A stretch of 64,000 nt of DNA from an uncultured Methanosarcinales archaeon (GCA_964561995.1 CAZLQZ010000006.1:8789-72788), one strand, 5' to 3'; shown: positions 1-47,427, numbered from the stretch's first letter. A program made the numbers and translations. The notes: a model not told the origin generated them from the letters alone.

Positions 1-247
1 TATTTGTTTTAAGATTATTTTTTTCTTTTAATTCTTTCCAGTTATATATTTCGCAATTAGAAATGAATTTGTTTTCTAAGGGTTGAGGTATATGATTTAT
101 AATTGCATGAAGATTGTGACCTATGCCATTTTTTCCTTTAACAAAAGTATTAGAACTATCTTTCCCTCTATATTTTATTAGCTTTAATCCTGCATCTATT
201 CTTTTTTTTACGTCCTTAGCATTGAACAATCCAATTATTCCGCACAT
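1..247 (-). CDS. asnB: Asparagine synthase (glutamine-hydrolysing), N-terminal fragment running off the left edge
   Basis: My translation from ATG (245-247, minus): MCGIIGLFNAKDVKKRIDAGLKLIKYRGKD...GIGHNLHAI...NCEIYNWKEL. It has the N-terminal Cys of class-II (Ntn) amidotransferases and a GEIYN-like motif. TATA-like TTTTATATA lies at 270-278. Confidence 0.6.
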   Translation of the reverse strand, partial: MCGIIGLFNAKDVKKRIDAGLKLIKYRGKDSSNTFVKGKNGIGHNLHAIINHIPQPLENKFISNCEIYNWKELKEKNNLKTN

Positions 248-283
248 GATTAGAAATTATAGGTTAGAGTATATAAAAGTTAG

Positions 284-1126
284 CTAATTATTAAATATTC
301 TAAAATCTTCTTTTGTGTAACCTTTATTTGAAATTTTAATTTTCAATTTTCTTTGTGCTTTAATATTTAATAATCTTGGGTATTCTCCTCTTGTACCCAT
401 TGCTATTCCAATATCTTCAAAGATATGGACTTCATATCCATTAAAACCATTTCTTCTTTTTACAATCTCTTTTAATTTTGGATCTAGTTCTTCAACTGCT
501 TCATTTACCAATTCATCAATCATTTTTCGTTCTAAACTTGTTTTTATGGCAAGATCTTTTTCAAGAACAAAAGCAAGGTCAGATTCACAATCTGGGCTAA
601 GGTAGGCATCCAAAGATACAATTTCTCTAAGTCTTTCAAAATATAAATATTTTCGAATTAGTTTTTCATTTTTGTTAAGTGCTTTTGAAATCTCGATTGG
701 TTCAGGATTTCTTTCAAGTTTATTTTTTAATTCATCACTAGTTTTTTGAATTGAGTTAATTGTTTCTTGAGCTGTAACTGGAAATCTAATTGTTGTGCCA
801 TAATTATTAATTGCTCTTCTAATTTTGTGTTTAATCCAATCGCCAGCGTAACCAGAAAATCTACCTTTGTTTGGGTTGAATGTTTTTGCTGCGTGCATTA
901 GTCCCATGTTTCCTTCTTGAACTAAATCTTCATAATCTAAACCTCTATCTACAAAGAAATTGGCAATTTTTTGAACCAATCTCAAATTACATTCTACTAA
1001 TGTATCTATTGCAAGTTCATTTCCTTGTACAGATTTAGTTCCCAATTCGAATTCTTCTTTTTTTGATAGTCTGGGAAATTGTTTAATTTCTCTATCATAT
1101 TGTGTTCTCTGTCTGTAATTAGTCAT
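284..1126 (-). CDS. Sigma-70 family protein, paralog 1 (most diverged; region 4 degenerate)
   Basis: Region 2 motif DLVQEGNMGLMHAAKTFNPNKGRFSGYAGDWIKHKIRRAI, region 1.2-like NLRLVQKIANFF, region 3 start TTIRFPVTAQE. The track start is TTG at 1135; I prefer ATG at 1126 (MTNYRQ) because it restores the same 26-nt spacing to the upstream motif as in the other paralogs. Confidence 0.8.
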   Translation of the reverse strand: MTNYRQRTQYDREIKQFPRLSKKEEFELGTKSVQGNELAIDTLVECNLRLVQKIANFFVDRGLDYEDLVQEGNMGLMHAAKTFNPNKGRFSGYAGDWIKHKIRRAINNYGTTIRFPVTAQETINSIQKTSDELKNKLERNPEPIEISKALNKNEKLIRKYLYFERLREIVSLDAYLSPDCESDLAFVLEKDLAIKTSLERKMIDELVNEAVEELDPKLKEIVKRRNGFNGYEVHIFEDIGIAMGTRGEYPRLLNIKAQRKLKIKISNKGYTKEDFRIFNN

Positions 1127-1151
1127 TAGAAACAAAGGAAATTTTAGTTGA

Positions 1152-1168
1152 TTTTAAAAGATTTTGAC
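1152..1168 (-). promoter_or_regulatory. Conserved promoter motif (TATA-like TTTTAAAA plus GATTTTGAC) upstream of sigma paralog 1
   Basis: Plus-strand TTTTAAAAGATTTTGAC. The TATA-like octamer ends 26 nt from the ATG at 1126. The same motif lies at 2099-2115 and, with one substitution, at 3050-3066. Confidence 0.55.
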
Positions 1169-1212
1169 TTTTTTTATTGTTTTTTAGTAGAAATTTGTTT
1201 TATATGTTGTAA

Positions 1213-2073
1213 TTAATTATTAAATAAACGTAAATCAAAATTTGAATAACCTTTTTTTTCTAATTCTTTTTTTATTACTTTTTCTGATTCTTTTTTTATT
1301 TGTCTTATTCTTTCTCTAGTTTTTCCAATAACTTTGGCTATATCTTCTAATATTTTGGGTTTATTGCCATTTAGTCCATATTTTAAAGTTATAATTATTT
1401 TTTGTCTTGAATCTAATTTTTCATTTATAATTTGATAAAGTTCTGTTACTATGTTTTGTCTTTCTTTATCTGGGTTTTGATCTGTGTCAATTGTCTTTTC
1501 GTCTTTAATAACTTCTTCTAAACAATCTATGTCCTCTTCTGTTATTGGAGCATCAAGAGATGCAGTTTTTAATAATTTTTCATTAATCAAACTTTCACCA
1601 GCTTGTTTTGGACTATATCTTGTATCCTTTGAAACTTCTTGATGTGTTGGTTCTCTTCCTAATTCATTTTTTAATCTAATATATTCTGCATGAATTTTGG
1701 TAATTTTTCCATATGCGCTAATTGGTATTCTTATTGTTCTGCTTTGATTACAAAGTCCCAGTTTCATTTGTTGTTTAATTTGCCAGCAAGCATAAGTTGA
1801 AAATTTAGCACCTTTAGTGGGATCAAATCTTTTTGCAGCTTCCATTAATCCTATGTTTCCTTCTTGTACTAAATCGTAATAAGGAAGTCCTAATTCTGTA
1901 AATCCGTGGGCTAATTCCATAACTAGTCTTAAATTAGAAATAACTAATTTGTCCATTGCTTCTTTATTTCCTTTTTGAACTAATTTTCCAAGAGTTATTT
2001 CTTCTTCTCTTTTTAATAAAGGATATTTTCTGGCTAATGTTGTATATGTTGTATTTTTTTCATATTTTCTCAT
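1213..2073 (-). CDS. Sigma-70 family protein, paralog 2 (RpoD/SigA-like, no region 1.1)
   Basis: NLRLVMELAHGF (1.2/2.1), DLVQEGNIGLMEAAKRFDPTKGAKFSTYACWQIKQQM (2.2-2.4), SRTIRIPISAY (3.0), LEDIAKVIGKTRERIRQIKKESEKVIKKEL (4.2), C-terminal DLRLFNN resembling the RpoD tail. ATG at 2073 preferred over TTG at 2082. Confidence 0.9.
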   Translation of the reverse strand: MRKYEKNTTYTTLARKYPLLKREEEITLGKLVQKGNKEAMDKLVISNLRLVMELAHGFTELGLPYYDLVQEGNIGLMEAAKRFDPTKGAKFSTYACWQIKQQMKLGLCNQSRTIRIPISAYGKITKIHAEYIRLKNELGREPTHQEVSKDTRYSPKQAGESLINEKLLKTASLDAPITEEDIDCLEEVIKDEKTIDTDQNPDKERQNIVTELYQIINEKLDSRQKIIITLKYGLNGNKPKILEDIAKVIGKTRERIRQIKKESEKVIKKELEKKGYSNFDLRLFNN

Positions 2074-2098
2074 AAGAACCAAAAGAAATTTAGTTAGC

Positions 2099-2115
2099 TT
2101 TTAAAAGATTTTGAC
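2099..2115 (-). promoter_or_regulatory. Conserved promoter motif upstream of sigma paralog 2
   Basis: TTTTAAAAGATTTTGAC, 26 nt from the ATG at 2073. The whole ~90-bp intergenic region is visibly homologous to 1127-1212. Confidence 0.55.
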
Positions 2116-2163
2116 CGGTTTTATTATTTTTTAGTAAAAATCTCTGTAGTATGGTGTAATTAA

Positions 2164-3024
2164 TTAATTATTAAATGAACGCAAATCTAAATTGGAATAA
2201 CCTTTTTTTTCTAATTCTTTTTTTATTATTTTTTCTGCTTCTATTTGTATTTGTCTCGCTCTTTCTCCTGTTTTTTTAATTGCTTTACCAATTAATTCTA
2301 GTTTTTTTGGTTTACTTCCATTAAGTCCGTATCTTAATGTGATTACTTTTTTTTGTGTTGGATTTAATTGGTCTAAAATATTGTAAGTTATTTTTACTAG
2401 TCTTTTTTTATCTCCATTAGGATAAAAATAAAGATTTTTATTACTTTCATCTTCTACAACATCTTCTAAATTATCTCCTTCCATGTCTAACCTTATTGCT
2501 GCATCTAAAGATCTAGTTGTAATCAGTTTTGAAGAAAATAAATATATTCTAACTTGTTTTTCTTTTAATTTTGTTTCATTAGATACTTCTTGAATTGTTG
2601 GATTTCTACCTAATTTATCTTGTAAAGTATTGTATGTTCGGGTAATTTTTGAAATTTTTTCATATGCTGTAACTGGTATTCTAATTGTTCGACTTTGATT
2701 TCCTAAATATCGTAAAATCTTTTGTTTAATCCACCAGGCAGAATAATTGGAAAATTTACTTCCTTTTTTGGGATCATATTTTTTGCTTGCAATTATTAAA
2801 CCTTTGTTTCCTTCTTGAATTAAATCTTCAGAATCTACACCTAGGAATTTGTATTCCTTGGCTATTTGTCTTACAAGTCTTAAATTACTTACTACTAATT
2901 TTTGGGCAGCTTTTTCATCTCCTTGTTGAACTCTTTCTCCAAGGCTAACTTCCTCTTTTATTGTTAATAAAGGAAATTTTTCAATGTCTCTGTCGTATAA
3001 AAATCTTTTACTGTATCTGTCCAT
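2164..3024 (-). CDS. Sigma-70 family protein, paralog 3 (RpoD/SigA-like, no region 1.1)
   Basis: NLRLVRQIAKEY, DLIQEGNKGLIIASKKYDPKKGSKFSNYSAWWIKQKI (keeps the WW pair of region 2.3/2.4), SRTIRIPVTAY, LELIGKAIKKTGERARQIQIEAEKIIKKEL, C-terminal DLRSFNN. Confidence 0.9.
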   Translation of the reverse strand: MDRYSKRFLYDRDIEKFPLLTIKEEVSLGERVQQGDEKAAQKLVVSNLRLVRQIAKEYKFLGVDSEDLIQEGNKGLIIASKKYDPKKGSKFSNYSAWWIKQKILRYLGNQSRTIRIPVTAYEKISKITRTYNTLQDKLGRNPTIQEVSNETKLKEKQVRIYLFSSKLITTRSLDAAIRLDMEGDNLEDVVEDESNKNLYFYPNGDKKRLVKITYNILDQLNPTQKKVITLRYGLNGSKPKKLELIGKAIKKTGERARQIQIEAEKIIKKELEKKGYSNLDLRSFNN

Positions 3025-3049
3025 AGGAAATATAAAGAATTGAGATTAA

Positions 3050-3066
3050 TTTTAAAAGCTTTTGAC
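3050..3066 (-). promoter_or_regulatory. Conserved promoter motif upstream of sigma paralog 3
   Basis: TTTTAAAAGCTTTTGAC, 26 nt from the ATG at 3024. The stop codon of the upstream TrmB-like gene (3072) lies only 5 nt away. Confidence 0.5.
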
Positions 3067-3071
3067 TAGAA

Positions 3072-3785
3072 TTATTCTTTATCTGCCATCTTCCACATTA
3101 CATCAAAATAACTTTTAAATGCTTTTGCGGCAGCTTTATTTTCAATAACAATTGCTTCGGGAACGTCTGTCCAAATTACAATTGCAATTTTATCACCATA
3201 AATATTTGTTACTGCTGGGCTTTCGGCAACATCTAGAAATCTGTGTTCGGAATATCTCGAATCTTCCATTTCTTTTCTACCTTTTCTGCAAATTAATTTT
3301 GTTTTAAAATTATTTTCTCTTTGCATTCTCATAAATTGTAATGCGAATTCCGGTATTTTTTTAGAAAATTGTCCTTCACTTCCATAAACAAAATTATCTT
3401 TTTTTGAATTGGCCATGTCTCTAAATATCTGTTTAACTCCTTTAATTCCTTTAAATAATCTTACTTGGCCTTCAATTTTATTAGCTTTATGTCTCGCACT
3501 TAATTCTGGTAAAATTTCTTTAACTTCTGATTCTTGTTCTTTAATATAATCTAGTAATCTTTTTGGACCTGTTGCTTGAAACCATTTAACTTTTCCAATT
3601 AAAACATAACTAACTAATGCTTTTTCAATTAGTGATTTTAATGAATTGTAGCACGAACTTCTGTCAACTTCTGCAAGTTTTGAAATCTTTCCTGCTTTTT
3701 GAGAGCCATGGTCGTTTAATGCCAAATAAACTTTAATCTCATTTGGACTAAAACCCATGTTTGATAGAACTTTTTCAACTTTCAT
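3072..3785 (-). CDS. TrmB-family transcriptional regulator
   Basis: N-terminal winged helix typical of TrmB: LSNMGFSPNEIKVYLALNDHGSQKAGKISKLAEVDRSSCYNSLKSLIEKALVSYV, followed by a ~130-aa C-terminal domain. Confidence 0.75.
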   Translation of the reverse strand: MKVEKVLSNMGFSPNEIKVYLALNDHGSQKAGKISKLAEVDRSSCYNSLKSLIEKALVSYVLIGKVKWFQATGPKRLLDYIKEQESEVKEILPELSARHKANKIEGQVRLFKGIKGVKQIFRDMANSKKDNFVYGSEGQFSKKIPEFALQFMRMQRENNFKTKLICRKGRKEMEDSRYSEHRFLDVAESPAVTNIYGDKIAIVIWTDVPEAIVIENKAAAKAFKSYFDVMWKMADKE

Positions 3786-3847
3786 AATTTTATGAAAATT
3801 TGGTGTTATTTAAATATTGTGTTGTTGTTTATTCTACAACGGATAGA

Positions 3848-4675
3848 TTATGAAATTCTTAATTCATTAATTTGTTTGAATCTATTGTAGTAGTCATTAC
3901 TAGTTTTGTATAATTTCCAAAATACTATTATTAACCATTCTAGCCATTCTTTGTCATAAATTTCATAGTAAAGTCTTATGTCTTGAGGAAGTTCCTTTTC
4001 TTGATACATTTCTTTTAGTTCTTGAGTATTAAATCTTGCAAATGACTCATCAACTATGTATCCACGTAAAGGTTGGTAGTGATGTTTAATTTCTATAAAT
4101 TCGGGATATTTTGTTAACAAAGGAATCATTTTTTCAATGTTACTTAATGAAGCAATATTAATTCTGCATAAGATTTTAATCATTACTTTTCTTTTTAACA
4201 ACTCTTCCAGAATTTGGGACATTTTTTTATCATCTTCTATTTTATTTATAAAAGAAAGATTTCCTGAAAATATGTAAACTACATTTTCTGCTCTTCTTAG
4301 AGCTTCACCCATTTTATAGGTTTTGGCGTTTAATTTATCACTAAAAGATTTTTTATTTTTGTCTGGAATGTACTGGAAAACTTCTAAAAAATCAAATTCT
4401 TCTTTTTTTCTTGATGTTTTAATTTGATTGAATAAGTCTTCTTTAATATCGTCGCTAATTAATGCTTCTGAATAATTATAATAAACTACTTTTACTGCTC
4501 CGGGTGTATTTTTTCTAAATACTTTAATATTTATTAATCCTGTTTGTTCTTTTATTTTTTTTGTATATGAGTCTGCAGTAACCCAGCTTTTTTTAATTAA
4601 TTTGGATATCTCTTGAACTGTTTTTGGTTCATTTTTTACAAATTTTACAATTTTTTCTACTATTTTTGCTTCCAT
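3848..4675 (-). CDS. Putative winged-helix DNA-binding protein with uncharacterised C-terminal domain
   Basis: N-terminus IVKFVKNEPKTVQEISKLIKKSWVTADSYTKKIKEQTGLINIKVF looks like a wHTH. The rest has no motif I recognise. Confidence 0.35.
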   Translation of the reverse strand: MEAKIVEKIVKFVKNEPKTVQEISKLIKKSWVTADSYTKKIKEQTGLINIKVFRKNTPGAVKVVYYNYSEALISDDIKEDLFNQIKTSRKKEEFDFLEVFQYIPDKNKKSFSDKLNAKTYKMGEALRRAENVVYIFSGNLSFINKIEDDKKMSQILEELLKRKVMIKILCRINIASLSNIEKMIPLLTKYPEFIEIKHHYQPLRGYIVDESFARFNTQELKEMYQEKELPQDIRLYYEIYDKEWLEWLIIVFWKLYKTSNDYYNRFKQINELRIS

Positions 4676-4777
4676 TATATGCTCTTAAGTTATTCTTATT
4701 TATATGTTTTTCTAAAACTAAGTTTTAATTTAGTTAAACTAACTGTTAAATCAATTAAAACACTATAGGGTATTACA

Positions 4778-5314
4778 ATGAAACAATATATATTAACCGG
4801 AGGACCTAGTTCAGGAAAAACAACCTTAATTGGGATGTTGAGTGACGACTTTCAAACAGTTCCAGAAGCAGCAGAATTAGTAATTCAAGAACAACAAACA
4901 AAAGGGATTGAAATACCGCAAATTCAACCAAATTTTCAGGGTTTGGTATATCAAAAACAAAAACAACAATTAGAAGATTTACCTTATGCACCTATCGCTA
5001 TTTTTGATAGAAGTATTGCAGATGGATTAGCTTATTGTGCTCTTTTTGATAAACCTGTACCAGATGGTTTAGCTAGTGAAGATTTAACTAATAGATTCGA
5101 AGAAGTTTTTTTAATTGAAAATCTTGGTTTTGCACAGGATAATGGAATAAGATATGAAGATAATGACTTATCTATTAAAATCCAAGAACAATTATTTAAA
5201 ACATATAGGGAACTTGGTTATAATCCCATAAGAGTGCCTGCATTTTGTGATTTATCAAAAGATGATAGTATTGCACAAAGAATGAAAATCATCTATGAGC
5301 AAATAAAATGCTAA
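4778..5314 (+). CDS. P-loop NTPase (AAA_28 / NadR-kinase-like)
   Basis: Walker A ILTGGPSSGKTTL at the N-terminus, small size (178 aa), FDRS motif further on. The stop overlaps the start of the next gene (ATGCTAA). Confidence 0.6.
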   Translation: MKQYILTGGPSSGKTTLIGMLSDDFQTVPEAAELVIQEQQTKGIEIPQIQPNFQGLVYQKQKQQLEDLPYAPIAIFDRSIADGLAYCALFDKPVPDGLASEDLTNRFEEVFLIENLGFAQDNGIRYEDNDLSIKIQEQLFKTYRELGYNPIRVPAFCDLSKDDSIAQRMKIIYEQIKC

Positions 5315-12447: not shown

Positions 12448-13038
12448 TTACTTGTCATGTTTTTTTAATTTTATAAATCTCTTTTTAAGAAGATAACCTA
12501 GAATAATAAGTAAGAGGGTTGCTATTGTTGTTCTGAGTAGCACATTATAAAATAATTCATAAAAATAATTTGCGGGGTATAATGTTATTAGAAAAGAATC
12601 AAAAGAAAATAAGAAATTTCCTTGTGGGAAGAAAATTAGGTGAAATAATGAAAATATTTGCGCTGGAAAAATTATGCTAGTTATTGAAAGTATTGTTGCT
12701 ATTGCAAGTGGAATCCATAATTTTGTTAAAATTTCTATGCTTTTGTTGAAGTATATTAATAGTCCTGTAATAATAGTTAATATTAAAATAAATAAAATAA
12801 AATTATCATTTAGTTTTTTTACATCTCTCATGTGGGATGATTCTTCTTTAGTTATGTTTAATTCTAGGTTGTTTGTTTTAAAGAATTCTAATACTTTTTG
12901 ATGTTCATCTAATTTGTTTTCACGTTTTGAATGTTTTTCTACTAATCTTTTTTGTAAATTGTTGTCAAATGCTGTAAGTTCAAACGTTACTGAGAAAATT
13001 AATAAAAATAAAAAAATTGAAATAAATGTTTTATTCAT
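12448..13038 (-). CDS. Integral membrane protein, function unknown
   Basis: Signal/anchor plus four hydrophobic segments. Confidence 0.5.
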   Translation of the reverse strand: MNKTFISIFLFLLIFSVTFELTAFDNNLQKRLVEKHSKRENKLDEHQKVLEFFKTNNLELNITKEESSHMRDVKKLNDNFILFILILTIITGLLIYFNKSIEILTKLWIPLAIATILSITSIIFPAQIFSLFHLIFFPQGNFLFSFDSFLITLYPANYFYELFYNVLLRTTIATLLLIILGYLLKKRFIKLKKHDK

Positions 13039-15034: not shown

Positions 15035-16108
15035 CTAGAACCAACTCTTTTTTTTGTTAAATGTTTTTTCTAATTCTATTAAAAGATCTTTTTGTTTTTT
15101 ATTTAGTTTTTTAGGAACTTCAATTGTAACTTTAACATTTTCACTTCCACTTCCGTATCCATCTAAGTGAGGTATTCCTTTTCCTTTCATTTGAAATATG
15201 GTTTCTGATTGTGTTCCTGCTGGAATTTTTAATGTTGCTTCACCTTTTAGGGTTGGAACTTTAATGTCTCCACCTAATGACGCTGTAATAAAAGAAACGG
15301 GTGCTTCAATATTAATATCATAATCTTCTCTTTGAAACAATTTGTGTTCTTTAACTGTAATGAATAAATATAAATCGCCAGTTTCAGCACCTTTTTCTCC
15401 TGCTTCTCCTTCGCCGTGAATTCTTAATCTCATTCCATTATCGACGCCTGCTGGTATTTTTGCATTTATTTTTTTATTAACTTCTCTTCTACCTGAACCA
15501 AAGCAACTAGAACATGGTTGTTCAATTGTTTCTCCTTCTCCTTGGCATTTTCTACATGATGATTGTAAGTTAACAATTCCAAAAGGTGTTCTTTGTTGTC
15601 TTCTTACAACTCCTGAACCATTACAATCTGGACAAGTAACTACTTTACTATGTTTGTCAGCTCCAGTACCTTTGCAATCTTCGCAAGTATCATATTTAGG
15701 TAGGGTGATTTCTTTTTCTACACCTTCTGCTGCTTCTTCTAAAGAAATTGTAATATCATATCTTAAATCGTCTCCTCTTCTCTTTTTAGACTTTCTTGCA
15801 CCGCCAAATCCAAAACCTGAAAAGACTTGATCAAAAATATCATCAAAATTAAATCCCATGTTGGATGGGTCGAATCCTTGACCTTGGGATCCTTCATTAG
15901 TTCCAAATCGGTCATATTGTTCTCTTTTAGTTTCATCGCCTAGAACTGCTGCGGCTTCATTTACTTCTTTGAATTTGTGTTCAGAATCAGGATTGTCCGG
16001 ATTTAAATCGGGGTGATATTTTTTTGCTAGTTTTTTGTACGCTTTTTTAATCTCCTCTTTACTAGCTCCTTTTTCAACTCCCAATGTTTCGTAGTAATCT
16101 TTACTCAT
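15035..16108 (-). CDS. dnaJ: Chaperone DnaJ (type I, with CxxCxGxG zinc-finger repeats)
   Basis: DYYETLGV...YHPDLNP J-domain, G/F-rich linker, CEDCKGTG / CPDCNGSG / CRKCQGEG / CSSCFGSG. Confidence 0.95.
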
Positions 16109-16262
16109 TTTTCCCCTTTACCCTATACTTAGGGTTATTAATTATGTCGTTAATTTCCCATTTTACTTGCTTTTTTAATCGTAAGTTTAGTCTTATATCT
16201 TTCCAAAACCTGCTTCCGATATACGCAAATACAGCGATTATAACAATCCATCCGAATTCCAT
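16101..16262 (-). CDS. Possible 53-aa single-pass membrane peptide overlapping the dnaJ start
   Basis: My translation: [53 protein letters not shown]. Its stop overlaps the dnaJ ATG by 8 nt. Not in the ORF track. Confidence 0.3.
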
Positions 16263-16357
16263 TTTATTATAAATAAAAAAATAAAGGTAATAAAAAGTTA
16301 TTCTTTTTATTCCTTCTTTTCTATCTTCTTTTTCATCAACTACTTTAGCGCAACTGG

Positions 16358-16384
16358 TTACGGTTGGTTGACATCCAACCGTAA
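16358..16384 (-). other. Perfect 10-bp stem / 7-nt loop hairpin in the dnaK-dnaJ spacer
   Basis: TTACGGTTGG-TTGACAT-CCAACCGTAA. It is GC-rich relative to its surroundings, and an adjacent GTAAG/CTTAC pairing would compete with it. Confidence 0.5.
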
Positions 16385-16420
16385 GTACTGTTTCGCTTAC
16401 TCAACTGTACGACTAAAAAA

Positions 16421-18304
16421 TTATTCCTTTTTTTCTTCCTTTTTATCTTCTTTTTCATCAACTACTTCTGCGTCAACTACTTTTTCATCCTTTTTTTCTT
16501 CTTTTTTATCTTTGCCAGGTTCTGCTTTTTGCTTAGCTTCTTGTTCTTTAGCAGCTTTAGCATACATTTCTTGTGCAATCTTATTGAACTTTTCAGTAAG
16601 TTCATCTTTTTTTGTTTTGATGGTTTCGTAGTTTTTGTCTTTGTCTTTTAGTAATTCTTTCATTTCATTGATGTCTTTTTTAATAGGTTCAATTTGTTTT
16701 TTATCAACTTTGTCGCCCATTTCTTTTATGGTTTTTTCATATTGAAATACTAAAGTTTCTGCTTCGTTTAAAGTTTCAATTTTTTCTTTAATTTTTTTGT
16801 CTTCATCTGCATGTGCTTCAGCGTCTTTTTTCATTTTTTCAATATCTTCATCTGACAAGTTTGATGAACCAGTTACTGTAATCTTTTGTTCTTTACCTGT
16901 TCCTAGGTCTTTAGCAGATACATTTACAATTCCATTTGCATCAATGTCGAATGTAACTTCAACTTGAGGAACTCCTCTTGGTGCTGGTGGTATTCCTACT
17001 AAATCGAATCTTCCTAATGATTTGTTATCATTAGCCATTGCTCTTTCACCTTGTAGTACGTTTATTGTTACTGCTGTTTGATTATCTGCAGCTGTACTGA
17101 ATGTTTGAGATTTTCTAGTTGGAATAGTTGTATTTCTTTCTATTAATTTAGTTGATACTCCGCCTAAAGTTTCAATACCTAAAGTTAGTGGTGTAACATC
17201 TAATAATAAAACATCTTTAACTTCTCCGCCTAAAATTCCTGCTTGAATTGCAGCGCCTAGTGCAACAGCTTCATCAGGGTTAACAGATTTATCTCCTTCT
17301 TTTCCAGTTATGCTTTTAACTAATTCTTGTACTGCTGGGATTCTAGTTGATCCTCCTACAAGTAAGATTTTGTTAATTTCGTCTGCTTTAATTCCTGCAT
17401 CTTTAATTGCTTGTTCTGTTGGTCCTTTTAATTTTTCAATAATGTCTGCAATCATATTCTCGAATTGCGCTTTTGTTAAATCTAAATTCAAATGTTTTGG
17501 ACCATCTGCTCCACTTGTAATAAATGGTAAGTTAATTGTAGTCTTTTGAGAAGATGAAAGTTCTTTTTTAGCATTTTCTGCTGCTTCTTTCAATCTTTGT
17601 TCAGCTTGTTTATCTTTTCTTAAGTCAATTCCATTTTCTTTTTTGAAATGTTCTGCTAAGAAATCAATAATTAACTGATCTATATCATCTCCACCTAAGT
17701 GATTATTTCCAGATGTTGATTTTACTTCAAAAACACCGTCTCCAAGTTCCATAACTGAAACATCGAAAGTTCCACCCCCAAAATCGAATACTAATACTGT
17801 GTGTTCGTTGGATTTATCCATTCCGTAAGCTAAACTTGCTGAAGTTGGTTCATTAACTATTCTTAAAACATTTAGTCCTGCAACTTTACCTGCATCTTTA
17901 GTAGCTTGTCTTTGAGCATCATTAAAATATGCTGGTACTGTAATTACTGCGTCAGTTACTGTTCTTCCCATGTATGCTTCTGCATCTGTTTTTAATTTTT
18001 GTAAAATGATTGCTGATACTTCTTGAGGACTATATTCTTTATCTTCAATTTTAATTTTTTCATCAGTTCCAATAATTCTTTTTACACTTCTTATAGTGTG
18101 TTCTGGATTAGTAACTGCTTGGTTTTTTGCAATTTTACCAACTACTCTTTCTCCATCTTTTAGTAAAACTACTGATGGTGTTGTTCTTTCTCCTTCTGCG
18201 TTTGGAATAATTGTTGGTTTTCCACCCTCCATTACTGCTACTGCTGAGAATGTAGTACCTAAATCTATTCCTATTGCTTTTCCTTGTGATGCTTTTTCAG
18301 TCAT
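16421..18304 (-). CDS. dnaK: Chaperone DnaK (Hsp70)
   Basis: [32 protein letters not shown] and the rest of a full-length Hsp70; lysine/glutamate-rich C-terminal tail. Confidence 0.97.
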
Positions 18305-18662
18305 TTTTTTTTACCTCTTGGCAAATTTGCCATTCTTCTTTTGATTGTTTGTTGTTTTTTACAAAATATTTTTTGTAAAATTCCATTGTTACATCTTCTT
18401 GACAATTGCCAAGTTTGCATAACAATGGTTTCACTTTGTGAATAGTACAGTGTTTGATTTTGTCGAAAAAGACGCATGGTCCAAACGGTTTTGGGTGTTT
18501 AGGTCGCCATGCTTCAGTTCCGAACATGTTGGTTTTTTCGAGATGTTTAGATTCTAATTCTTTTTCTGTAATGTTAAGGAATTTGGCAATTGCTTCTTTG
18601 TCTCCTGGCCCTAAAAAACCAGTTGAATATTGGCAACACTTGCCACAATTTAAACAACTCAT
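18297..18662 (-). CDS. YkgJ/UPF0153-family CxxCxxCC metal-binding protein
   Basis: [11 protein letters not shown]... plus downstream C/H residues ([13 protein letters not shown]). The ATG at 18662 overlaps the grpE stop (ATGA), and the 3-prime end overlaps the dnaK start by 8 nt. Confidence 0.6.
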
Positions 18663-19168
18663 TTCTTGCTTACTTTTACTCTTGAACATCTAATAACTTT
18701 ACCGCTGAGTTTGTATCCTTTTTGTAACTCGTCTAAAATAGTTCCTTCAGGTTTATCTGATTCTTCTGTAATTACAGCTTCATGTAATTCTGGATTGAAA
18801 TTTTTGTTATCTTTAATTGGTTCAAGTCCTTCATTTTCTAAAGTTGCTAAAAATTGTGCAAAGATCATTTCCATCCCTTTGATGAATTCTTCTTTGTTTT
18901 CTTTATGTTTTAATGCTAATTCGAACATGTCTAAAACTGGTAAAAGGCTAGTAATAACTTCTTTTTTAAGATATATTTTTAGATCTTTTTTTTCTTCTTC
19001 AGTTCTTCTTTTAAAGTTTGCAAAGTCTGCTTGAGTTGATTGTAATAGGTATGTAAGTTCTTGAATTCTTTCTTCTGAACTCATTTTTATTTCTTTTTTT
19101 TCTTCTTTACAGGTTTTAACTGCTTCTTTGATTTCAGATTTACAAGTTTTTTGTTTTTCTTTTGACAT
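18659..19168 (-). CDS. grpE: Nucleotide exchange factor GrpE
   Basis: ADFANFKRRTEEE, LLPVLDMFELAL and HEAV motifs, with the typical length after a charged N-terminus. Confidence 0.9.
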   Translation of the reverse strand: MSKEKQKTCKSEIKEAVKTCKEEKKEIKMSSEERIQELTYLLQSTQADFANFKRRTEEEKKDLKIYLKKEVITSLLPVLDMFELALKHKENKEEFIKGMEMIFAQFLATLENEGLEPIKDNKNFNPELHEAVITEESDKPEGTILDELQKGYKLSGKVIRCSRVKVSKK

Positions 19169-19194
19169 TTCGAATCCCCTTTTGTGCTTACCTG

Positions 19195-19211
19195 GTTGAC
19201 CTTAAGTCAAC
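19195..19211 (-). promoter_or_regulatory. Inverted repeat GTTGAC-N5-GTCAAC between a TATA-like box (19237-19244) and the grpE start
   Basis: Read directly: GTTGACCTTAAGTCAAC. It sits about 25-40 nt downstream of TTTATAAA, where an archaeal transcription start would fall. Confidence 0.45.
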
Positions 19212-19954: not shown

Positions 19955-21394
19955 ATGCCACTATTAACTAAATCCAAATATATCATCGGAATACAGTGCC
20001 CGAAGTATTTATGGATGGTTTTTCACGAGAAAGATAAGATTCCCGAACACGATAAATCAACCCAATTTCGTTTCGATCAAGGTAATTTAGTTGGCCAACT
20101 AGCTAAGAAGTTATACCCTGAAGGTATCAATATATCAACCAAAGATTTTATGGGTAATATTAATCAAACAAGGATTTTAGTGGATAAACGTGCAACAATG
20201 TTTGAAGCTGGTTTTATGAACAATAGTTTATATTCACGAGTTGATATTCTTAAACCTGCACCTAAGGGACAGTGGGATATTATAGAAGTAAAATCTTCAA
20301 CAAGTGTTAAAGATATTAATCTACACGATATTTCCTTTCAAAAACATTGCTTAGAATGTTATGGGTTAAAGATTAGAAAATGTTTCTTAATGTATCTTAA
20401 TAACAAATATATAAAAAAAGGAAAAATAAGTCCTAAAAACTTATTTGTAACTGAAGAAATAACTGCATTTAAATATGTAAAAATAAAAGAAATGTTCGAT
20501 ATCATAAATTCTAATGTTAATCCTGATACAACAATAGGAAGACATTGTGCAGACCCTTACGGTTGTCCGTTAGAAGGAGAATGTTGGGGATTTTTACCTG
20601 AACAAAACGTGTTTGATTTGTACAGGGGAACTAATGCTGCTTTAGAATTATTTGAAAATGAAGTATTAGAAATAAAAAATATTCCTGAAGATTTCAAATT
20701 AAACGATAAACAAAGTATTCAAAAAAATTGTGCCATAACCAATAAACCTTACATCCAAAAAGAAGGAATTAAAGATTTCATTAAAACTTTAAATTATCCT
20801 TTATACTATTTAGACTTTGAAACTCATAGTCCAGCAATCCCAATTTATGATGGAATGAGACCTTATCAAAGAATTCCTTTCCAATTTTCTTTACATATTG
20901 TTCAAGAAGATGGCACTTCTTCACATCATTCTTTTTTAGCAGAAGGAAAAGAAGATCCAAGACCAAAATTCTTAGAAGAATTAAAGAAATTACTTGATGA
21001 TAAAGGAAGTATTGTTGTTTACAATCAAACATTTGAAATAAGTATGTTAAACGAATTAGCAGTGAGCTTTCCAGAATATAACGAAGTAATTAAACAATAT
21101 AAGGATAGAATTGTAGACTTGCTAGTGCCTTTTAGAAACTTTCATTATTATCATCCAAAACAAGCAGGCTCAGCATCAATTAAGAAAGTTCTCCCTGCAC
21201 TAACTGGTAAGAGTTATGATGACTTAGGAATTAATCAGGGCAATGATGCAAGCCTTTCTTTTGTACGTATGATCTTTGGTGAAGATTCTAAAGAAGAAAA
21301 AGATAAAATTAAAGCTGATTTAGAAAAGTATTGTAAACTTGATACTGAAGGGATGATTTGGATTGTTGATGAATTGAGAAAGTTAATTGAGTGA
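19955..21394 (+). CDS. DUF2779-like protein (PD-(D/E)xK nuclease-like N-domain + RNase H-like C-domain)
   Basis: N-terminus LLTKSKYIIGIQCPKYLWM resembles the DUF2779 signature. DILKP...WDIIEVKSST fits a D..ExK nuclease motif; YYLDFET fits a DEDD-type exonuclease motif. Confidence 0.55.
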   Translation: MPLLTKSKYIIGIQCPKYLWMVFHEKDKIPEHDKSTQFRFDQGNLVGQLAKKLYPEGINISTKDFMGNINQTRILVDKRATMFEAGFMNNSLYSRVDILKPAPKGQWDIIEVKSSTSVKDINLHDISFQKHCLECYGLKIRKCFLMYLNNKYIKKGKISPKNLFVTEEITAFKYVKIKEMFDIINSNVNPDTTIGRHCADPYGCPLEGECWGFLPEQNVFDLYRGTNAALELFENEVLEIKNIPEDFKLNDKQSIQKNCAITNKPYIQKEGIKDFIKTLNYPLYYLDFETHSPAIPIYDGMRPYQRIPFQFSLHIVQEDGTSSHHSFLAEGKEDPRPKFLEELKKLLDDKGSIVVYNQTFEISMLNELAVSFPEYNEVIKQYKDRIVDLLVPFRNFHYYHPKQAGSASIKKVLPALTGKSYDDLGINQGNDASLSFVRMIFGEDSKEEKDKIKADLEKYCKLDTEGMIWIVDELRKLIE

Positions 21395-26360: not shown

Positions 26361-27764
26361 TTAATTATGATTTCTTTTTCTTATTATTGCTCTTCTTAAT
26401 TTGAATGCGATTAATTTGTGAGATAGTTTATTTTTTAAAATTTTAAGATTATGATTTACATAATTTTGTTTTAATTTATCATTATTAATTATTTTAATAA
26501 CTTCATCTACTTTCTCAATTTCAAATTTATCTAGTGAAACGCATTTAAATCCAAATTGTGCTATGTCTTTTATAAATACAGGATATGTGTACAATATCGG
26601 TACTAATCCTCCTGCCATAACTTCCAATAAATTATTTCCAAAACCTTCAATTTCACTAAAATAAGTTGATACTCCTCCCAATCTTGCAATGATTGATGGG
26701 AATTCTGCAAATCTAATTTCAGTTTTAAAATCTTCATTAAAAACTAAGAAGAATTTAGTAGTGTTATATTGTTTAGATAATTTATTATTTAATTTTTTAA
26801 GTTCTTTTTTGTATGTTGTATCTAATTTTCCAGTATGTCCTGAAATAAAGAAAATCATTGCTTTTTTATCTAATTTGGAATGTAATTCATATGCATATTT
26901 TAATGCAAAATCGATTCTTTTTCTTGGAACAATTCTTGTATGTTGTAAACAAAATTGGGTATCTTCTAATGTTAAATTTTCTTTTTTTAACATTTCCCAT
27001 ATTTTAAAATCTTCTAAGAATTTTTCAACTCTTTCTTTAAATTCATCCTTTCTTAATTCGCTGTAATTGTTAATTACTGCAGTTGCAGTATTATAAACAA
27101 CATCATAATTAAGTAATATATCTTTGTGTAATTCTTCATAATATTTTCTTGCTAATTCATATTGCATTGAATTAATAAACAAGATATATTCGACATATTT
27201 ACTTGGAACGCCTTCATCTAAGTATCCTTTTACATCAGGAGAAGGATTTTCAAATTTCGGTCTTTCTAAATGTGAATCGTGCCACCATAAAACATATTTT
27301 GGTGTTGATTTATTATTTTTTATTGCATCTCGATAATATCTTGCAAGAGCAACTGGTCCAATAAAATTAACAGGATGCGAGTAATTATGAATTATTAAAA
27401 TATCAATTTTCTTTTTTTCAATCCATTGGGTAATTTCTTCTTGTGCATTTTGTATTGCTTTTTCAATTTCTTCATAACAATTAACATAACCTTTTGAGAA
27501 ATTATGAACCATTTTTTTATTTAATTTATTACCATGCCATAAAATTTTTCTTTGTGTAATTTGTTTAGATTTTTTTCCAGATTTACCAATCAAATAATAA
27601 ATATTAGAAGCAGGAATATTAAGATATTCTTTCATTGCATATTCTACTTGGTCCATAACAATAGAAACACCGTCCTCAAAACCAAATTGAGAATGAATAA
27701 CACCATAATTTAATGATGGAATTTGTTTTTTAGTAAATTTCATTAATATTTTAATTAATTTCAT
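26361..27764 (-). CDS. Glycosyltransferase (GT-B fold, GT4-like)
   Basis: C-terminal EIEGFGNNLLEVMAGGLVPI resembles the GT4 E-x7-E region. An alternative start (MKFTKKQ, 27743) lies 24 nt from a TTTAAAAATA box. Confidence 0.55.
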   Translation of the reverse strand: MKLIKILMKFTKKQIPSLNYGVIHSQFGFEDGVSIVMDQVEYAMKEYLNIPASNIYYLIGKSGKKSKQITQRKILWHGNKLNKKMVHNFSKGYVNCYEEIEKAIQNAQEEITQWIEKKKIDILIIHNYSHPVNFIGPVALARYYRDAIKNNKSTPKYVLWWHDSHLERPKFENPSPDVKGYLDEGVPSKYVEYILFINSMQYELARKYYEELHKDILLNYDVVYNTATAVINNYSELRKDEFKERVEKFLEDFKIWEMLKKENLTLEDTQFCLQHTRIVPRKRIDFALKYAYELHSKLDKKAMIFFISGHTGKLDTTYKKELKKLNNKLSKQYNTTKFFLVFNEDFKTEIRFAEFPSIIARLGGVSTYFSEIEGFGNNLLEVMAGGLVPILYTYPVFIKDIAQFGFKCVSLDKFEIEKVDEVIKIINNDKLKQNYVNHNLKILKNKLSHKLIAFKLRRAIIRKRNHN

Positions 27765-27864
27765 CCTTTAAAAATATTTTCAAAATTAAACTTGACCGGC
27801 AAATTGTTTTAAATTAATATTAATCATATAAAACCTTATTAATTAATAATCATTTTAATCTTTT

Positions 27865-28206
27865 ATGCCTAATGAATTTAAAAATGAAGATTTGCAGAAA
27901 TTATATGATGTTTTAAATAAAAATGGTATAACTCTAAAAGATACTTTTCAATCTATTTCTACCACTTTGGAAGTTGTTGATTTTATTCCTAGAGGCACTT
28001 TAAATACTCTTGTTTTAGAACCAATTGAAGCAGATTATTTAGCAGAGTATAGAATTGATAAAAGATGTCCTTGGTCAATGAAATCATCTCATTTTGGAAT
28101 AACCCTTTTTTCAAGTTATGGTACAAATCAAGAAAAAAATCTGGTTTATGACGGTCTTCATTCAGTTATTTTAAGATATGAAAAAAGAAATGAAGAAGAT
28201 AGTTAA
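27865..28206 (+). CDS. Hypothetical protein
   Basis: 113-aa ORF; no motif recognised. Confidence 0.35.
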   Translation: MPNEFKNEDLQKLYDVLNKNGITLKDTFQSISTTLEVVDFIPRGTLNTLVLEPIEADYLAEYRIDKRCPWSMKSSHFGITLFSSYGTNQEKNLVYDGLHSVILRYEKRNEEDS

Positions 28207-28702: not shown

Positions 28703-29689
28703 ATGAATGATGAAATTAAAAAACTTAATGAACAAGCAGAAATTTTTTCAAAAGATTTAATGCTGTTGAGTGAAGAAATTAAAAAAGTAATTGTTGGTCA
28801 AGATTCTGTTATTAATAAAGTAATAATTGCATTAATTGCTAATGGTCATATTTTATTGGAAGGAGTTCCAGGTTTAGCTAAAACTTTGTTAATTAGGACT
28901 CTTGCACAGTCGATTTCTGCAGATTTTTGTAGACTTCAATTTACTCCGGATTTGTTACCTGCTGATATTATGGGTACAAAAATTTATAATGCTAAAACGG
29001 GTTTGTTTATAACAAAAAAAGGACCAATATTTTCAAATTTCATTCTTGCTGATGAAATTAATCGTGCTCCTCCTAAAGTACAATCTGCATTATTAGAAGC
29101 TATGCAAGAACATCAAGTTACAATCTCGGGAGACACTTTTAAACTAGATACTCCCTTTCTTGTAATGGCAACACAAAATCCTTTAGAAACTGAAGGAACT
29201 TATCGTTTACCTGAAGCTCAAATAGATAGGTTTATGTTTAAAATTTTAATTTCTTATCCTTCTAAAGATCAAGAAAAAGAAATTATTCAAAGAAATACTC
29301 AAGGAAATGAAATTAAAGTAAAAACTATTTTATCTACTTCAAAATTATTAGGTATTCAAAAGTTTAATTATTTAATTTATGCAGATAAAAAAATCGAAGA
29401 TTATGTTACTTCATTAGTGGATATTACTCGAAATCCAAATGATTACGGGTTAAATGTTGATAATCATATTGAGTTGGGTGCATCACCTAGGGCTAGTTTA
29501 TGGTTGATTTTAGCTGCAAAAGCTAATGCACTTTTGAATGGTAGGGGATATGTAATTCCTGAAGATGTTCAAGAAATTGCTCCTGATGTTTTAAGACACA
29601 GAATAGTATTATCTTATGACGCTGAAGCTGAAGGAATAGACGCCGATGATATAATTGAAAAAATTCTTGATAAAGTGAAGATACCTTAA
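28703..29689 (+). CDS. MoxR-family AAA+ ATPase
   Basis: LLEGVPGLAKTLL (Walker A), ILADEINRAPPKVQSALLEAMQE (Walker B/sensor), LPEAQIDRF. Confidence 0.9.
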   Translation: MNDEIKKLNEQAEIFSKDLMLLSEEIKKVIVGQDSVINKVIIALIANGHILLEGVPGLAKTLLIRTLAQSISADFCRLQFTPDLLPADIMGTKIYNAKTGLFITKKGPIFSNFILADEINRAPPKVQSALLEAMQEHQVTISGDTFKLDTPFLVMATQNPLETEGTYRLPEAQIDRFMFKILISYPSKDQEKEIIQRNTQGNEIKVKTILSTSKLLGIQKFNYLIYADKKIEDYVTSLVDITRNPNDYGLNVDNHIELGASPRASLWLILAAKANALLNGRGYVIPEDVQEIAPDVLRHRIVLSYDAEAEGIDADDIIEKILDKVKIP

Positions 29690-29690
29690 A

Positions 29691-30566
29691 ATGCCAGAAA
29701 CAAAAGAAATTTTAAAACAAGTTAAGAAAATAGAAATATCAACCAATTATTTAGTTGAAGAACTTCTTCAGGGAATGTATCATTCCGTGTTTAAAGGAAT
29801 GGGCATAGAATTTTCTGAAGTTAGAGAATACATTTATGGTGATGATATAAGAACTATTGATTGGAATGTTACTGCAAGGATGGGTCATCCTTATGTAAAA
29901 GAATTTATTGAAGAAAGAAATTTGACTATTTATATTGTGTTGGATGTTTCGGCGAGTAATGAGTTTGGTAATATAAAAGAAAAAAAACGTATTGCAATTG
30001 AATTAGCAGCTTCATTAATGTTTGCGGCAATTAAAAATAATGACAGAGTTGGACTTATTTTGTTTAGTGATGAAGTTGAAAAATTCATTCCACCAAGAAC
30101 TGGTAAAAGATTTATTTTAAAATTAATAAGAGAAATGCTTTATTATAAACCTAAATCAAAAAGTACTAATTTAACTGTACCTTTGATTTTTCTATCCAAG
30201 ATTGTTAAAAAAAAGAGTGCAATTTTTGTTTTTTCTGATTTTTTTTCAATAGATTTTTCTAAGTCTTTAAGAATTTTAAAAAATAAACATGATGTAATTG
30301 CAATTAACTTAAGAGATGAAAGAGAAGAATCTCTTCCTGAAATAGGTTATGTAGAATTAGAAGATGAAGAAACTGGGGAAACTATAATTGTTAATACTTC
30401 TGATTCTGAAGTTAGAGAAAATTTTAAAAAAATAATTAAAGAAAAAAATGATGAACTAACTCATTTATTTAGAAAACTTAAAATTGATGTTATAAAAATT
30501 AGAACAGATGAAACTTTTGAAATACCGTTAAGGAAATTTTTCAAATTAAGGAGGAATAAAAGGTGA
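29691..30566 (+). CDS. DUF58-family protein (MoxR partner)
   Basis: EFSEVREYIYGDDIRTIDWNVTARMGHPYVKEFIEERN...VLDVSAS. Confidence 0.85.
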   Translation: MPETKEILKQVKKIEISTNYLVEELLQGMYHSVFKGMGIEFSEVREYIYGDDIRTIDWNVTARMGHPYVKEFIEERNLTIYIVLDVSASNEFGNIKEKKRIAIELAASLMFAAIKNNDRVGLILFSDEVEKFIPPRTGKRFILKLIREMLYYKPKSKSTNLTVPLIFLSKIVKKKSAIFVFSDFFSIDFSKSLRILKNKHDVIAINLRDEREESLPEIGYVELEDEETGETIIVNTSDSEVRENFKKIIKEKNDELTHLFRKLKIDVIKIRTDETFEIPLRKFFKLRRNKR

Positions 30567-31510
30567 ATGTGCAAAATCCAATTTGGTTAATATTTTTATT
30601 AGCAATTCCGTTAATGATTTATTTTTATAATCAACATTTAAAAAAAGCAAGAAATGCAGCTATCAAATTTAGTAATTTGGGATTTATTAAACAAGCCCAA
30701 AAAAATAAAAAAAGAAGTTTAAGAAAACATTTGGAATTTATTTTATCTTCTTTATTAATCTTTTTTTTAATTTTAGGTTTGGCTGACCTTCATATTCCAT
30801 TAAAACAAACTAAAGAAGGTGTAAATGTTGTTTTGGCTTTGGATGTTAGTGGGAGTATGCAAGCAACAGATTATAAACCAAATAGGTTAGAATCTGCTAA
30901 ATCTTCCGCAAAAATATTGATAAATTCTTTAAAGTCTAAAGACCATGTTGGGATAGTAATATTTGAATCTGGTGCTACAACTGCTGCTTATTTGAGTCCT
31001 TTTAAAGATATGGTTTTAAGTAAACTTGAAAACATTGCCCCAAAAGATGGAAGGACCGCAATTGGGGATGGTTTAAGTCTTGCAATAGACATGGCCTCAT
31101 CAATTCCAAATAAAAAAAAGGTTGTAATTTTATTAAGTGATGGTGTTAGTAATTCTGGAGTTATTTCACCTGATGAAGCAATCTCTTTTGCTAAAGATAA
31201 TAAAATTCAAGTTCATACGATTGGTATGGGTTCTGATGAACAAACTATCTTGGGTTATGATTATTTTGGAAATCCTCAATATGCAGAGTTAGATGAAAAA
31301 ACATTAAAAAATATTGCTATAAATACTGGTGGAAAATACTTTAAATCTGTTAATTCAGAAACTCTTGATGATGTTTATGAAGATATAAGTAAGGACTTAG
31401 AACGAGAAAAAGAATTGACAAGTATAAAGGATTGGTTTTTTATTCTTTCTTTATTTATGGTAGGGTTGCTTATTTATTTCAAATATGGGAAGTATAGGAT
31501 AATCAGATGA
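30563..31510 (+). CDS. Membrane-anchored von Willebrand factor A protein (BatA-like)
   Basis: N- and C-terminal TM helices; MIDAS LALDVSGSM, LLSDGVSN. Confidence 0.85.
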   Translation: MNVQNPIWLIFLLAIPLMIYFYNQHLKKARNAAIKFSNLGFIKQAQKNKKRSLRKHLEFILSSLLIFFLILGLADLHIPLKQTKEGVNVVLALDVSGSMQATDYKPNRLESAKSSAKILINSLKSKDHVGIVIFESGATTAAYLSPFKDMVLSKLENIAPKDGRTAIGDGLSLAIDMASSIPNKKKVVILLSDGVSNSGVISPDEAISFAKDNKIQVHTIGMGSDEQTILGYDYFGNPQYAELDEKTLKNIAINTGGKYFKSVNSETLDDVYEDISKDLEREKELTSIKDWFFILSLFMVGLLIYFKYGKYRIIR

Positions 31511-47266: not shown

Positions 47267-47427
47267 GATATTTTATTTTGTTGGTATTATATAAACTTTA
47301 TGTTAAGAAAAGTTTTTGATTAATTTTGTTTAGATTTAATTATTAATTTAATTTTAATTTGTGATTTTGTAATTAATGATTATTTTAAGAATGTTTGTTT
47401 GAATTATTTGATTAAAATAAAATTGTA

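Follow-up and report, generated by a model that had tools for sequence, protein, structure and literature searches.

Three tandem, diverged sigma-70 genes in an archaeal chromosome fragment

Background

Genes encoding sigma-70 factors are known from archaea. A 2018 review (PMC6126073) credits Rinke et al. 2013 with the first description of archaeal sigma factors, and Castelle et al. 2021 (PMC8204110) reported sigma-70 genes (family fam00359) in newly reconstructed DPANN genomes, where they are especially prevalent in Woesearchaeota. Here we describe a cluster of three sigma-70 genes at one end of a 64,000-nucleotide stretch of DNA deposited as an uncultured Methanosarcinales archaeon (GCA_964561995.1 CAZLQZ010000006.1:8789-72788). 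The whole stretch is called the window below, and positions are counted from its first letter. A preliminary description of this DNA had mentioned sigma-like genes from DPANN metagenome bins and rated the novelty of the cluster too high; such genes are indeed published (Castelle et al. 2021, PMC8204110).

Castelle et al. 2021 (PMC8204110) ruled out mis-binning as the source of these genes, saw no anti-sigma factors and described the mechanism as unclear. Only archaeal initiation factors are reported in that study, the known DPANN hosts mentioned there are archaea, and the DPANN genomes mix archaeal- and bacterial-type genes, as the window does. Two DPANN viral genes, one of them on a prophage, are annotated as rpoS in a 2025 study. 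According to recent reviews, archaea need no sigma factor, or lack sigma factors. No paper with a functional test of archaeal sigma genes was found in our literature searches.

Sigma factors on one side and TBP and TFB on the other are the textbook markers that divide bacterial from archaeal and eukaryotic transcription initiation. Archaeal sigma genes have been noted since 2013 and never explained. The locus considered here is a compact test case, as it contains three paralogs at different stages of divergence, defined archaeal promoters and a common, exactly repeated 17-nucleotide element.

Results

Domain structure of the three genes

The three genes follow each other on the minus strand, where the preliminary description had placed three reading frames of 280-286 codons. 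Paralog 3 occupies positions 2164-3024 (286 amino acids; regions 1.2, 2, 3 and 4), paralog 2 positions 1213-2073 (286 amino acids from the ATG at 2073) and paralog 1 positions 284-1126 (280 amino acids from the ATG at 1126). The list of open reading frames (ORFs) has longer versions of the latter two with TTG starts, at 1213-2082 and 284-1135. However, translation most likely begins at the ATGs at 1126 and 2073, because the gene calls in databases are 280 and 286 amino acids long and all three ATGs lie exactly 25 nucleotides past the 17-nucleotide motif considered below.

A Pfam profile search, which had been proposed as a check of the sigma assignment, yielded matches above the cut-offs in all three proteins for Sigma70_r2 (PF04542; 63, 55.5 and 60.4 bits in paralogs 1, 2 and 3; cut-off 24) and Sigma70_r3 (34.4, 25.7 and 36.5 bits; cut-off 25.3). 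Sigma70_r4 (PF04545; cut-off 24.1) was found in paralog 2 (29.2 bits) and paralog 3 (28.5 bits), the two in which region 4.2 had been read by eye. Paralog 1 has no Pfam match to Sigma70_r4; the NCBIfam RpoS model still aligns with it up to residue 277. In an AlphaFold2 model of this protein (mean predicted local distance difference test score, pLDDT, 81) three region 4 helices are predicted with pLDDT 84-92, and the best structural matches in PDB are RpoS and SigA chains. Sigma70_r1_2 was found in paralogs 2 (26.5 bits) and 3 (31.7 bits), whereas paralog 1 scores 19.1 bits, under the cut-off of 22. With Pfam and NCBIfam taken together, all three paralogs have the domain order 1.2-2-3-4, region 1.2 being sub-threshold in paralog 1. 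No Pfam match to region 1.1 was obtained in any of them, as had been claimed, and there is no room for this region, since region 1.2 already starts at residues 12-18.

The RpoS, RpoD_Cterm and SigA models of NCBIfam align nearly end to end with each paralog. However, the best scores (179-214 bits with RpoS, 153-182 bits with RpoD_Cterm) fall far short of the respective cut-offs of 378.7 and 354, and over all equivalog models they range from 153 to 214 bits against cut-offs of 354-394. Thus the earlier label "RpoD-type" is justified in the sense of a group-1/2-like sigma-70 factor, and not in the sense of an RpoD or RpoS equivalog. Residues 9-267 of paralog 3 match solved SigA and RpoS chains with E about 1e-45, the best PDB sequence match being SigA.

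Pairwise identity is 51% between paralogs 3 and 2, 41% between 3 and 1, and 37% between 2 and 1, close to the estimate by eye that paralogs 2 and 3 agree at about half of their positions and paralog 1 is more distant. The motifs quoted in the preliminary description (NLRLV, DL[VI]QEGNxGL, TIR[IF]P, TRERIRQI/TGERARQI and ...DLRxFNN) are all present in the alignment of the paralogs. Paralog 1 is the most diverged copy, and paralog 2 the most bacterial-like one (46% identity to database protein P0094). All frames of the window were searched with a profile built from sigma homologs, and no further sigma-like ORF emerged. The trio are paralogs of a single bacterial group-1/2-like (RpoD/RpoS-like) sigma-70 gene.

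Origin and relatives

The best non-self match of each paralog is another paralog, so that they are reciprocal best hits. The C-terminal tail KGY[ST]..D[LF]R.F...FNN is found in the trio and in none of the 197 other sigma proteins compared (200 in all), and the trio is grouped in 152 of 200 bootstraps of a neighbour-joining tree. Since mutual best matches, the private tail and the tree all make the trio one clade, the simplest history is one acquisition followed by two tandem duplications.

Outside the trio, the best matches have 40-46% identity, and nothing exceeds 46% among the 5.8 billion proteins searched. The named ones come from Lentisphaeria, Opitutales, Verrucomicrobiota, Omnitrophota, Rhodothermales and Patescibacteria. 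All six nearest-match contexts inspected are bacterial, with genes for ribosomal proteins S21, S18, L33, S6 and L9, DnaB and LpxK. Ranking of the roughly 200 best matches by amino-acid composition gave no DPANN relatives; of the two that look most AT-rich, one is named as an Omnitrophota protein and the other is encoded among bacterial genes. A metagenome scan with the three-paralog profile produced 80 loci, all with at most 40% identity. The low-GC loci inspected among them (L039, L044 and L032) have sigma genes of 359-379 amino acids in an arrangement that looks bacterial, and in two of them a gene of about 500 amino acids lies directly upstream. Identity was at most 37% in the scans of viral contigs, and a single-protein scan of species-representative genomes returned only a Spirochaete sigma factor at 32%.

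Host and chromosomal context

The archaeal-type genes of the window, identified by domain search, are Ribosomal_S8e, L37e, L44e, GatD with its N-terminal domain, Gins51 (GINS) and an S-layer protein; an LSm protein adjoins L37e, and there are TrmB-type regulators. Of the archaea-specific neighbours named in the preliminary description, S8e, L37e, L44e, LSm and GatD are borne out by domain matches, whereas the pilin has only a weak Pilin_N match (E 0.003).

Directly upstream of the sigma cluster, and not part of the sigma unit, is a gene of a TrmB-family regulator (3072-3785, minus strand). More than 100 database proteins share 70-77% identity with its product, and the named ones among them belong to Woesearchaeota, Nanoarchaeota or Pacearchaeota. 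Because of this similarity, the host is assigned to the Woesearchaeota-type (DPANN) archaea. The three closest orthologous TrmB loci were inspected, including one on a contig of 737 kb, and none has a sigma gene nearby. The strikingly high conservation of this TrmB protein suggests a core regulator of the lineage. As a separate observation, five putative DNA-binding genes stand in a row on the same strand: TrmB, a 275-amino-acid predicted DNA-binding protein (3848-4675) and the three sigma genes. On the other flank, a same-strand gene starts at position 247 (MCGIIG...) and runs past the window end; it looks amidotransferase-like by eye and has no Pfam match.

The GC content of the window is flat (24-33%). 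The sigma genes have 27-29% GC and 11-15% GC at third codon positions (GC3), compared with 27.9+/-3.0% and 15.1+/-3.6% in the 69 other genes, and rank 19, 34 and 44 of 72 by codon usage. They are compositionally indistinguishable from the host. The contigs of the nearest bacterial homologs that were measured have 37-68% GC, versus 27% here. Given the host-like composition and the position of the cluster between TrmB and the same-strand gene at 247, a chimeric join with bacterial DNA is very unlikely. The earlier statement that this is not a bacterial contig agrees with this composition, with the archaeal promoters described below and with the TrmB similarity to Woesearchaeota proteins. The three genes are intact, triplicated and diverging, and lie on a real archaeal chromosome fragment.

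These data bear on the suggestion that the trio are canonical sigma factors for a bacterial-type core encoded elsewhere in the genome, or that the cluster is an assembly or binning chimera. The window is one part of the genome, and the cluster lies 284 nucleotides from its edge, which leaves some space for such a suggestion. However, the host-like gene starting at 247 continues past the cluster, the promoters are archaeal, the composition is that of the host, the TrmB neighbour resembles Woesearchaeota proteins and the bacterial homologs measured come from far more GC-rich contigs. Moreover, Castelle et al. 2021 (PMC8204110) excluded mis-binning and report only archaeal initiation factors. We regard both forms of this suggestion as barely credible. 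No RNA polymerase subunits, bacterial or archaeal, were found in the 64-kb window.

Another suggestion is that the genes are cargo of a provirus or mobile element. The rpoS genes on two DPANN viral genomes, one a prophage (the 2025 study), provide a precedent, and the cluster looks inserted beside TrmB when set against the relatives. However, its neighbours are TrmB, the predicted DNA-binding protein and the amidotransferase-like gene, and genes for an integrase, a capsid or other parts of such an element are absent from its flanks. The viral homologs, with at most 37% identity, are weaker than the bacterial chromosomal ones, and the composition equals that of the host. Thus an origin as mobile cargo is highly improbable.

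Promoters and spacers

Many genes of the window are preceded by an A-rich stretch followed by CTTT(T/A)(T/A)(T/A)A, located about 30-38 nucleotides before the ATG. Of 46 upstream regions, 14 contain a strict version of this pattern, compared with 3.3% of random windows, and its positions peak sharply at -38 to -30. An archaeal promoter consists of a purine-rich B recognition element (BRE) and then a TATA box centred near -26. Read in the light of this established architecture, the pattern is the BRE/TATA of this organism. Its position relative to the ATG implies leaderless mRNAs or mRNAs with very short leaders.

The sigma genes fit this register. The BRE/TATA-like element of paralog 3, GTCAAAAGCTTTTAAAA, occupies positions 3050-3066 (minus strand), 25 nucleotides before the ATG and 5 nucleotides past the TrmB stop codon. 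The elements of paralogs 2 and 1, at 2099-2115 and 1152-1168 (minus strand), both read GTCAAAATCTTTTAAAA and also lie 25 nucleotides before the respective ATGs. The 17-nucleotide sequence GTCAAAAKCTTTTAAAA has three exact copies in the 64 kb, solely at the sigma genes, each ending 25 nucleotides before an ATG. As the sigma genes share the register of the other BRE/TATA elements of the window, they appear to be set up for one-by-one transcription by the archaeal machinery.

The spacer between paralogs 3 and 2 (2074-2163) and that between paralogs 2 and 1 (1127-1212), both on the minus strand, are conserved counterparts with 77% identity, versus 61% in the adjoining coding DNA and 49.5+/-4.5% when upstream regions are paired at random. 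This likeness has been kept either by selection or by gene conversion.

The pentamer GTCAA is exactly conserved at the 5' edge of each sigma promoter element and is a candidate autoregulatory site. On the other strand it reads TTGAC. The "TTGAC-containing motif" of the preliminary description is therefore the reverse complement of GTCAA beside a BRE/TATA-like promoter on the gene-sense strand, and does not represent a bacterial -35 box in the promoter orientation.

Sigma-70-type promoters are not enriched in positions 1-5000 (17 observed, 25.7+/-5.6 expected), nor in 47 upstream segments read on the sense strand (20 observed, 16.4+/-4.2 expected). Bacterial promoters at the sigma genes were considered and rejected, as there is no excess of sigma-70-type promoters and the genes have BRE/TATA-like elements instead. 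Likewise, TTGAC was rejected as a regulon motif, since its 11 intergenic sites, versus about 6.7 expected, do not form a significant excess.

Two observations on these sequences may be added. Six of the ten non-tRNA intergenic TTGAC sites are at the sigma trio or at grpE-dnaK-dnaJ; this clustering at two gene sets of bacterial origin hints at a common regulator, although the count is post hoc and statistically weak. The 8-mer CCGGTCAA is common to the promoter of paralog 2 (2108-2115) and to positions 27790-27800 (about 0.3 occurrences expected by composition); the latter positions lie in the promoter region from which a glycosyltransferase gene (26361-27764, minus strand) and an ORF at 27865-28206 diverge.

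Conserved and lost residues

The trio was aligned with E. coli sigma-70 and 197 bacterial homologs. The sequence (residues 379-613) and numbering of E. coli sigma-70 were verified against PDB chains. Columns conserved in at least 95% of the bacterial set were considered near-invariant; there are 53 of them, including 16 in region 4 and 10 in region 3. E. coli sigma-70 keeps 49 of the 53 (fractions 0.94 in region 4 and 0.9 in region 3), paralog 3 keeps 45 (0.62 and 1.0), paralog 2 keeps 42 (0.69 and 1.0) and paralog 1 keeps 38 (0.44 and 0.9). The trio is at or under the bottom of the distribution for the 197 homologs. Most of the loss falls in region 4: all three paralogs are well under the bacterial 5th percentile of 0.94 there. 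Region 2 of paralog 3, on the other hand, is at the bacterial level. Positions 555, 563, 572 and 595 depart from the bacterial consensus in all three paralogs. In bacteria, region 4 holds the beta-flap and reads the -35 box.

The residues that we take to be the canonical readers of the -10 box (Y430, W433, W434, Q437 and R441, E. coli numbering) and of the -35 box (R584, E585, R588 and Q589) have changed differently in each copy. Paralog 3 keeps W433, W434, Q437 and R441, and R584G in its region 4.2 (TGERARQI) is the sole change among these nine residues; no other copy has the complete W433/W434 pair. In paralog 2, region 4.2 is canonical (TRERIRQI) and region 2 carries W434Q and R441L. Paralog 1 has W433D, Q437H, R584G and Q589L, and its region 4.2 recognition helix is degenerate (G-E-Y-P-R-L) and includes a proline. 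The proportions of synonymous (0.42-0.53) and nonsynonymous (0.30-0.40) differences between the paralogs form an uninformative ratio, as synonymous sites saturate at a low apparent value (GC3 about 12%).

One possibility is that the genes are decaying relics of the transfer without present function. This would agree with the number of near-invariant residues, which is lower than in all, or all but one, of the 197 homologs, with the proline in the recognition helix of paralog 1, and with the absence of the cluster from the TrmB loci of the closest relatives. However, three frames of 280-286 codons have stayed open at 27% GC, where stop codons arise easily, and the composition is fully ameliorated. 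Regions 2 and 3 are near bacterial levels, and the promoter 17-mer and its 25-nucleotide spacing are exactly conserved. Decay is therefore quite unlikely.

Phage-encoded sigma factors redirect bacterial RNA polymerase, and the proteins could similarly be effectors transferred into, or acting on, a bacterial host or prey so as to redirect its polymerase. In favour of this, the canonical residues for binding the core and reading DNA have persisted, most notably in paralogs 2 and 3. On the other hand, degradation has affected region 4 of every copy, the part that is required to dock on the beta-flap and to read the -35 box. Inspection by eye revealed neither a signal peptide nor a secretion context, and the known DPANN hosts in Castelle et al. 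2021 (PMC8204110) are archaea. A role in a bacterial partner is thus very improbable.

The motifs NLRLV and DLxQEGNxGL are intact in all three proteins despite an overall identity of 37-51%. These motifs are regions 2.1 and 2.2, which, following the holoenzyme literature, we take to be the main contact with the beta-prime clamp helices. The clamp coiled-coil of archaeal Rpo1 is a homolog of these helices, while for the beta-flap tip we know of no archaeal equivalent. This leads to the possibility of hybrid initiation, in which region 2.2 of the sigma factors would bind the Rpo1 clamp coiled-coil and so attach them to the archaeal RNA polymerase, where they would steer promoter choice beside or instead of TFB and TFE. 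The invariance of the two motifs and the concentration of drift in region 4, the partner of the beta-flap tip, would fit such docking, and three paralogs resemble a repertoire of alternative sigma factors. However, no population of sigma-70-type promoters is visible, and the sigma genes themselves have ordinary BRE/TATA promoters. Besides, the region 2.2 motif has a structural role as well, so that its conservation is not specific for a polymerase contact. Hybrid initiation is thus unlikely, albeit worth consideration. Its more elaborate version is a little more doubtful still: here the proteins would have become adapted to the archaeal polymerase, binding the Rpo1 clamp through region 2.2 while their remodelled region 4 gave up its beta-flap role, and would serve as alternative specificity factors with or against TFB and TFE, autoregulated through GTCAA.

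Discussion

Possible function

The reading that we favour, with a probability of roughly 0.55, is that these are long-resident, horizontally acquired sigma genes whose products would act as sequence-specific DNA-binding regulators within archaeal transcription; they may touch the polymerase clamp and may autoregulate. The gene would have come from a bacterium by horizontal transfer long ago, and the two tandem duplications would have followed the acquisition. Each copy would be transcribed separately by archaeal TBP, TFB and RNA polymerase into a leaderless or nearly leaderless mRNA. The proteins would be under selection, with region 2 and region 3.0 held near bacterial levels and region 4 drifting in all three. 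Subfunctionalisation is possible, from paralog 2, the most canonical, to paralog 1, the most diverged. The conserved region 2.2 surface may contact the clamp of the archaeal RNA polymerase, and autoregulation could proceed through GTCAA at the genes' own promoters.

It is most likely that the proteins are no longer initiation factors of a bacterial polymerase, because they have no region 1.1 to mask DNA binding and neither a bacterial core nor sigma-70-type promoters are in evidence. The retention of regions 2 and 3, the remodelling of region 4 and the lack of an anti-sigma factor fit proteins that have left the bacterial polymerase and still use their DNA-binding domains.

Several points weigh against this reading. 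The search for polymerase core genes covers the window, 64 kb of a 98-kb contig and one part of the genome, and a bacterial-type core could lie elsewhere. The cluster is lineage-specific or patchy and does not belong to a conserved Woesearchaeal neighbourhood, because sigma genes are missing from the nearest loci with a TrmB orthologue. The contrast in conservation with the bacterial homologs is somewhat inflated, as the reference set consists of the closest bacterial matches, which are mutually related. The conservation of the spacers may reflect gene conversion and not selection. The role as regulators is one that we infer from the pattern of residues kept and lost, and the intact region 2.2, the main core-binding surface in bacteria, could mean that a polymerase partner is still required.

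Docking of the proteins on the archaeal polymerase, if it occurs, would mean that an initiation factor of bacteria can be put to use in the other domain. If the proteins act instead as free-standing regulators, they would neatly illustrate how a general factor can become a specific one.

Other features of the window

The many bacterial-type genes of the window include grpE-dnaK-dnaJ, LspA, Lit, the MoxR/DUF58/BatA set and PduL. Within the archaeal backbone, the lipoprotein transacylase Lit is encoded at 12448-13038 and the MoxR-DUF58-BatA/VWA "Bat" set at 28703-31510; signal peptidase II (LspA) is at 43032-43472 and phosphate propanoyltransferase (PduL) at 43957-44496. LspA together with Lit suggests bacterial-style lipoprotein processing.

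A perfect 17-nucleotide palindrome, GTTGACTTAAGGTCAAC (19192-19210, minus strand), precedes grpE (18659-19168). It is located between a BRE/TATA-like sequence, GAAACATTTATAAAG, and a Shine-Dalgarno-like AGGGG with the ATG, and could be a candidate operator or a hairpin in the 5' untranslated region of the bacterial-type Hsp70 operon. It is unlike the CIRCE and HAIR consensus sequences as these are commonly given. Just 3' of dnaK (16421-18304) there is a GC-rich hairpin, ACGGTTGG-ATGTCAA-CCAACCGT (approximately 16355-16385, minus strand), that contains an exact TTGACA on the plus strand. An ORF of 53 amino acids, with a hydrophobic stretch near its N-terminus, lies between dnaK and dnaJ (16101-16262, minus strand).

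Two proteins of the RNase_H_2 superfamily, one of them with DUF2779, are encoded at 19955-21394 and 53449-54180. An S-layer-like protein of 803 amino acids (47922-50333) is followed by a short paralogous S_layer_C protein of 177 amino acids (50432-50965), and the only tRNA gene of the window (Leu, 47427-47512) is located just upstream of the S-layer-like gene, in a 655-nucleotide gap.

Comparison with known systems

The closest described system is the DPANN sigma-70 family fam00359 (Castelle 2021). In both cases bacterial-type sigma-70 genes stand amid archaeal genes in Woesearchaeota hosts, with no anti-sigma factor nearby; this likeness rests on a sigma-70 gene amid DPANN genes and not on sequence comparison, as there is no archaeal-looking sequence among the roughly 200 best matches. 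The present locus differs in that its sigma genes form a tandem trio, share a private C-terminal tail and have one conserved archaeal promoter each.

The trio also resembles short bacterial group-1/2 sigma factors, that is, RpoS and the "RpoD/SigA" proteins of 270-300 amino acids from Lentisphaerae, Verrucomicrobia, Omnitrophota and Patescibacteria. These have the same 1.2-2-3-4 order, are also devoid of region 1.1 and the non-conserved insert, and share 40-46% identity with the trio. However, the trio is far under the equivalog cut-offs, has lost near-invariant residues of region 4, and occurs in a host with an archaeal transcription apparatus, on genes with BRE/TATA promoters.

Sigma-70-like factors of phages and viruses, including the "rpoS" of DPANN viruses, similarly occur outside a normal bacterial chromosome and have diverged from host-type sigma factors. 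However, the viral homologs are more distant from the trio (at most 37% identity) than the bacterial chromosomal ones, and no viral genes flank the trio. Thus the locus does not represent a new kind of system; the trio is a new, unusually divergent, triplicated member of a published and unexplained class.

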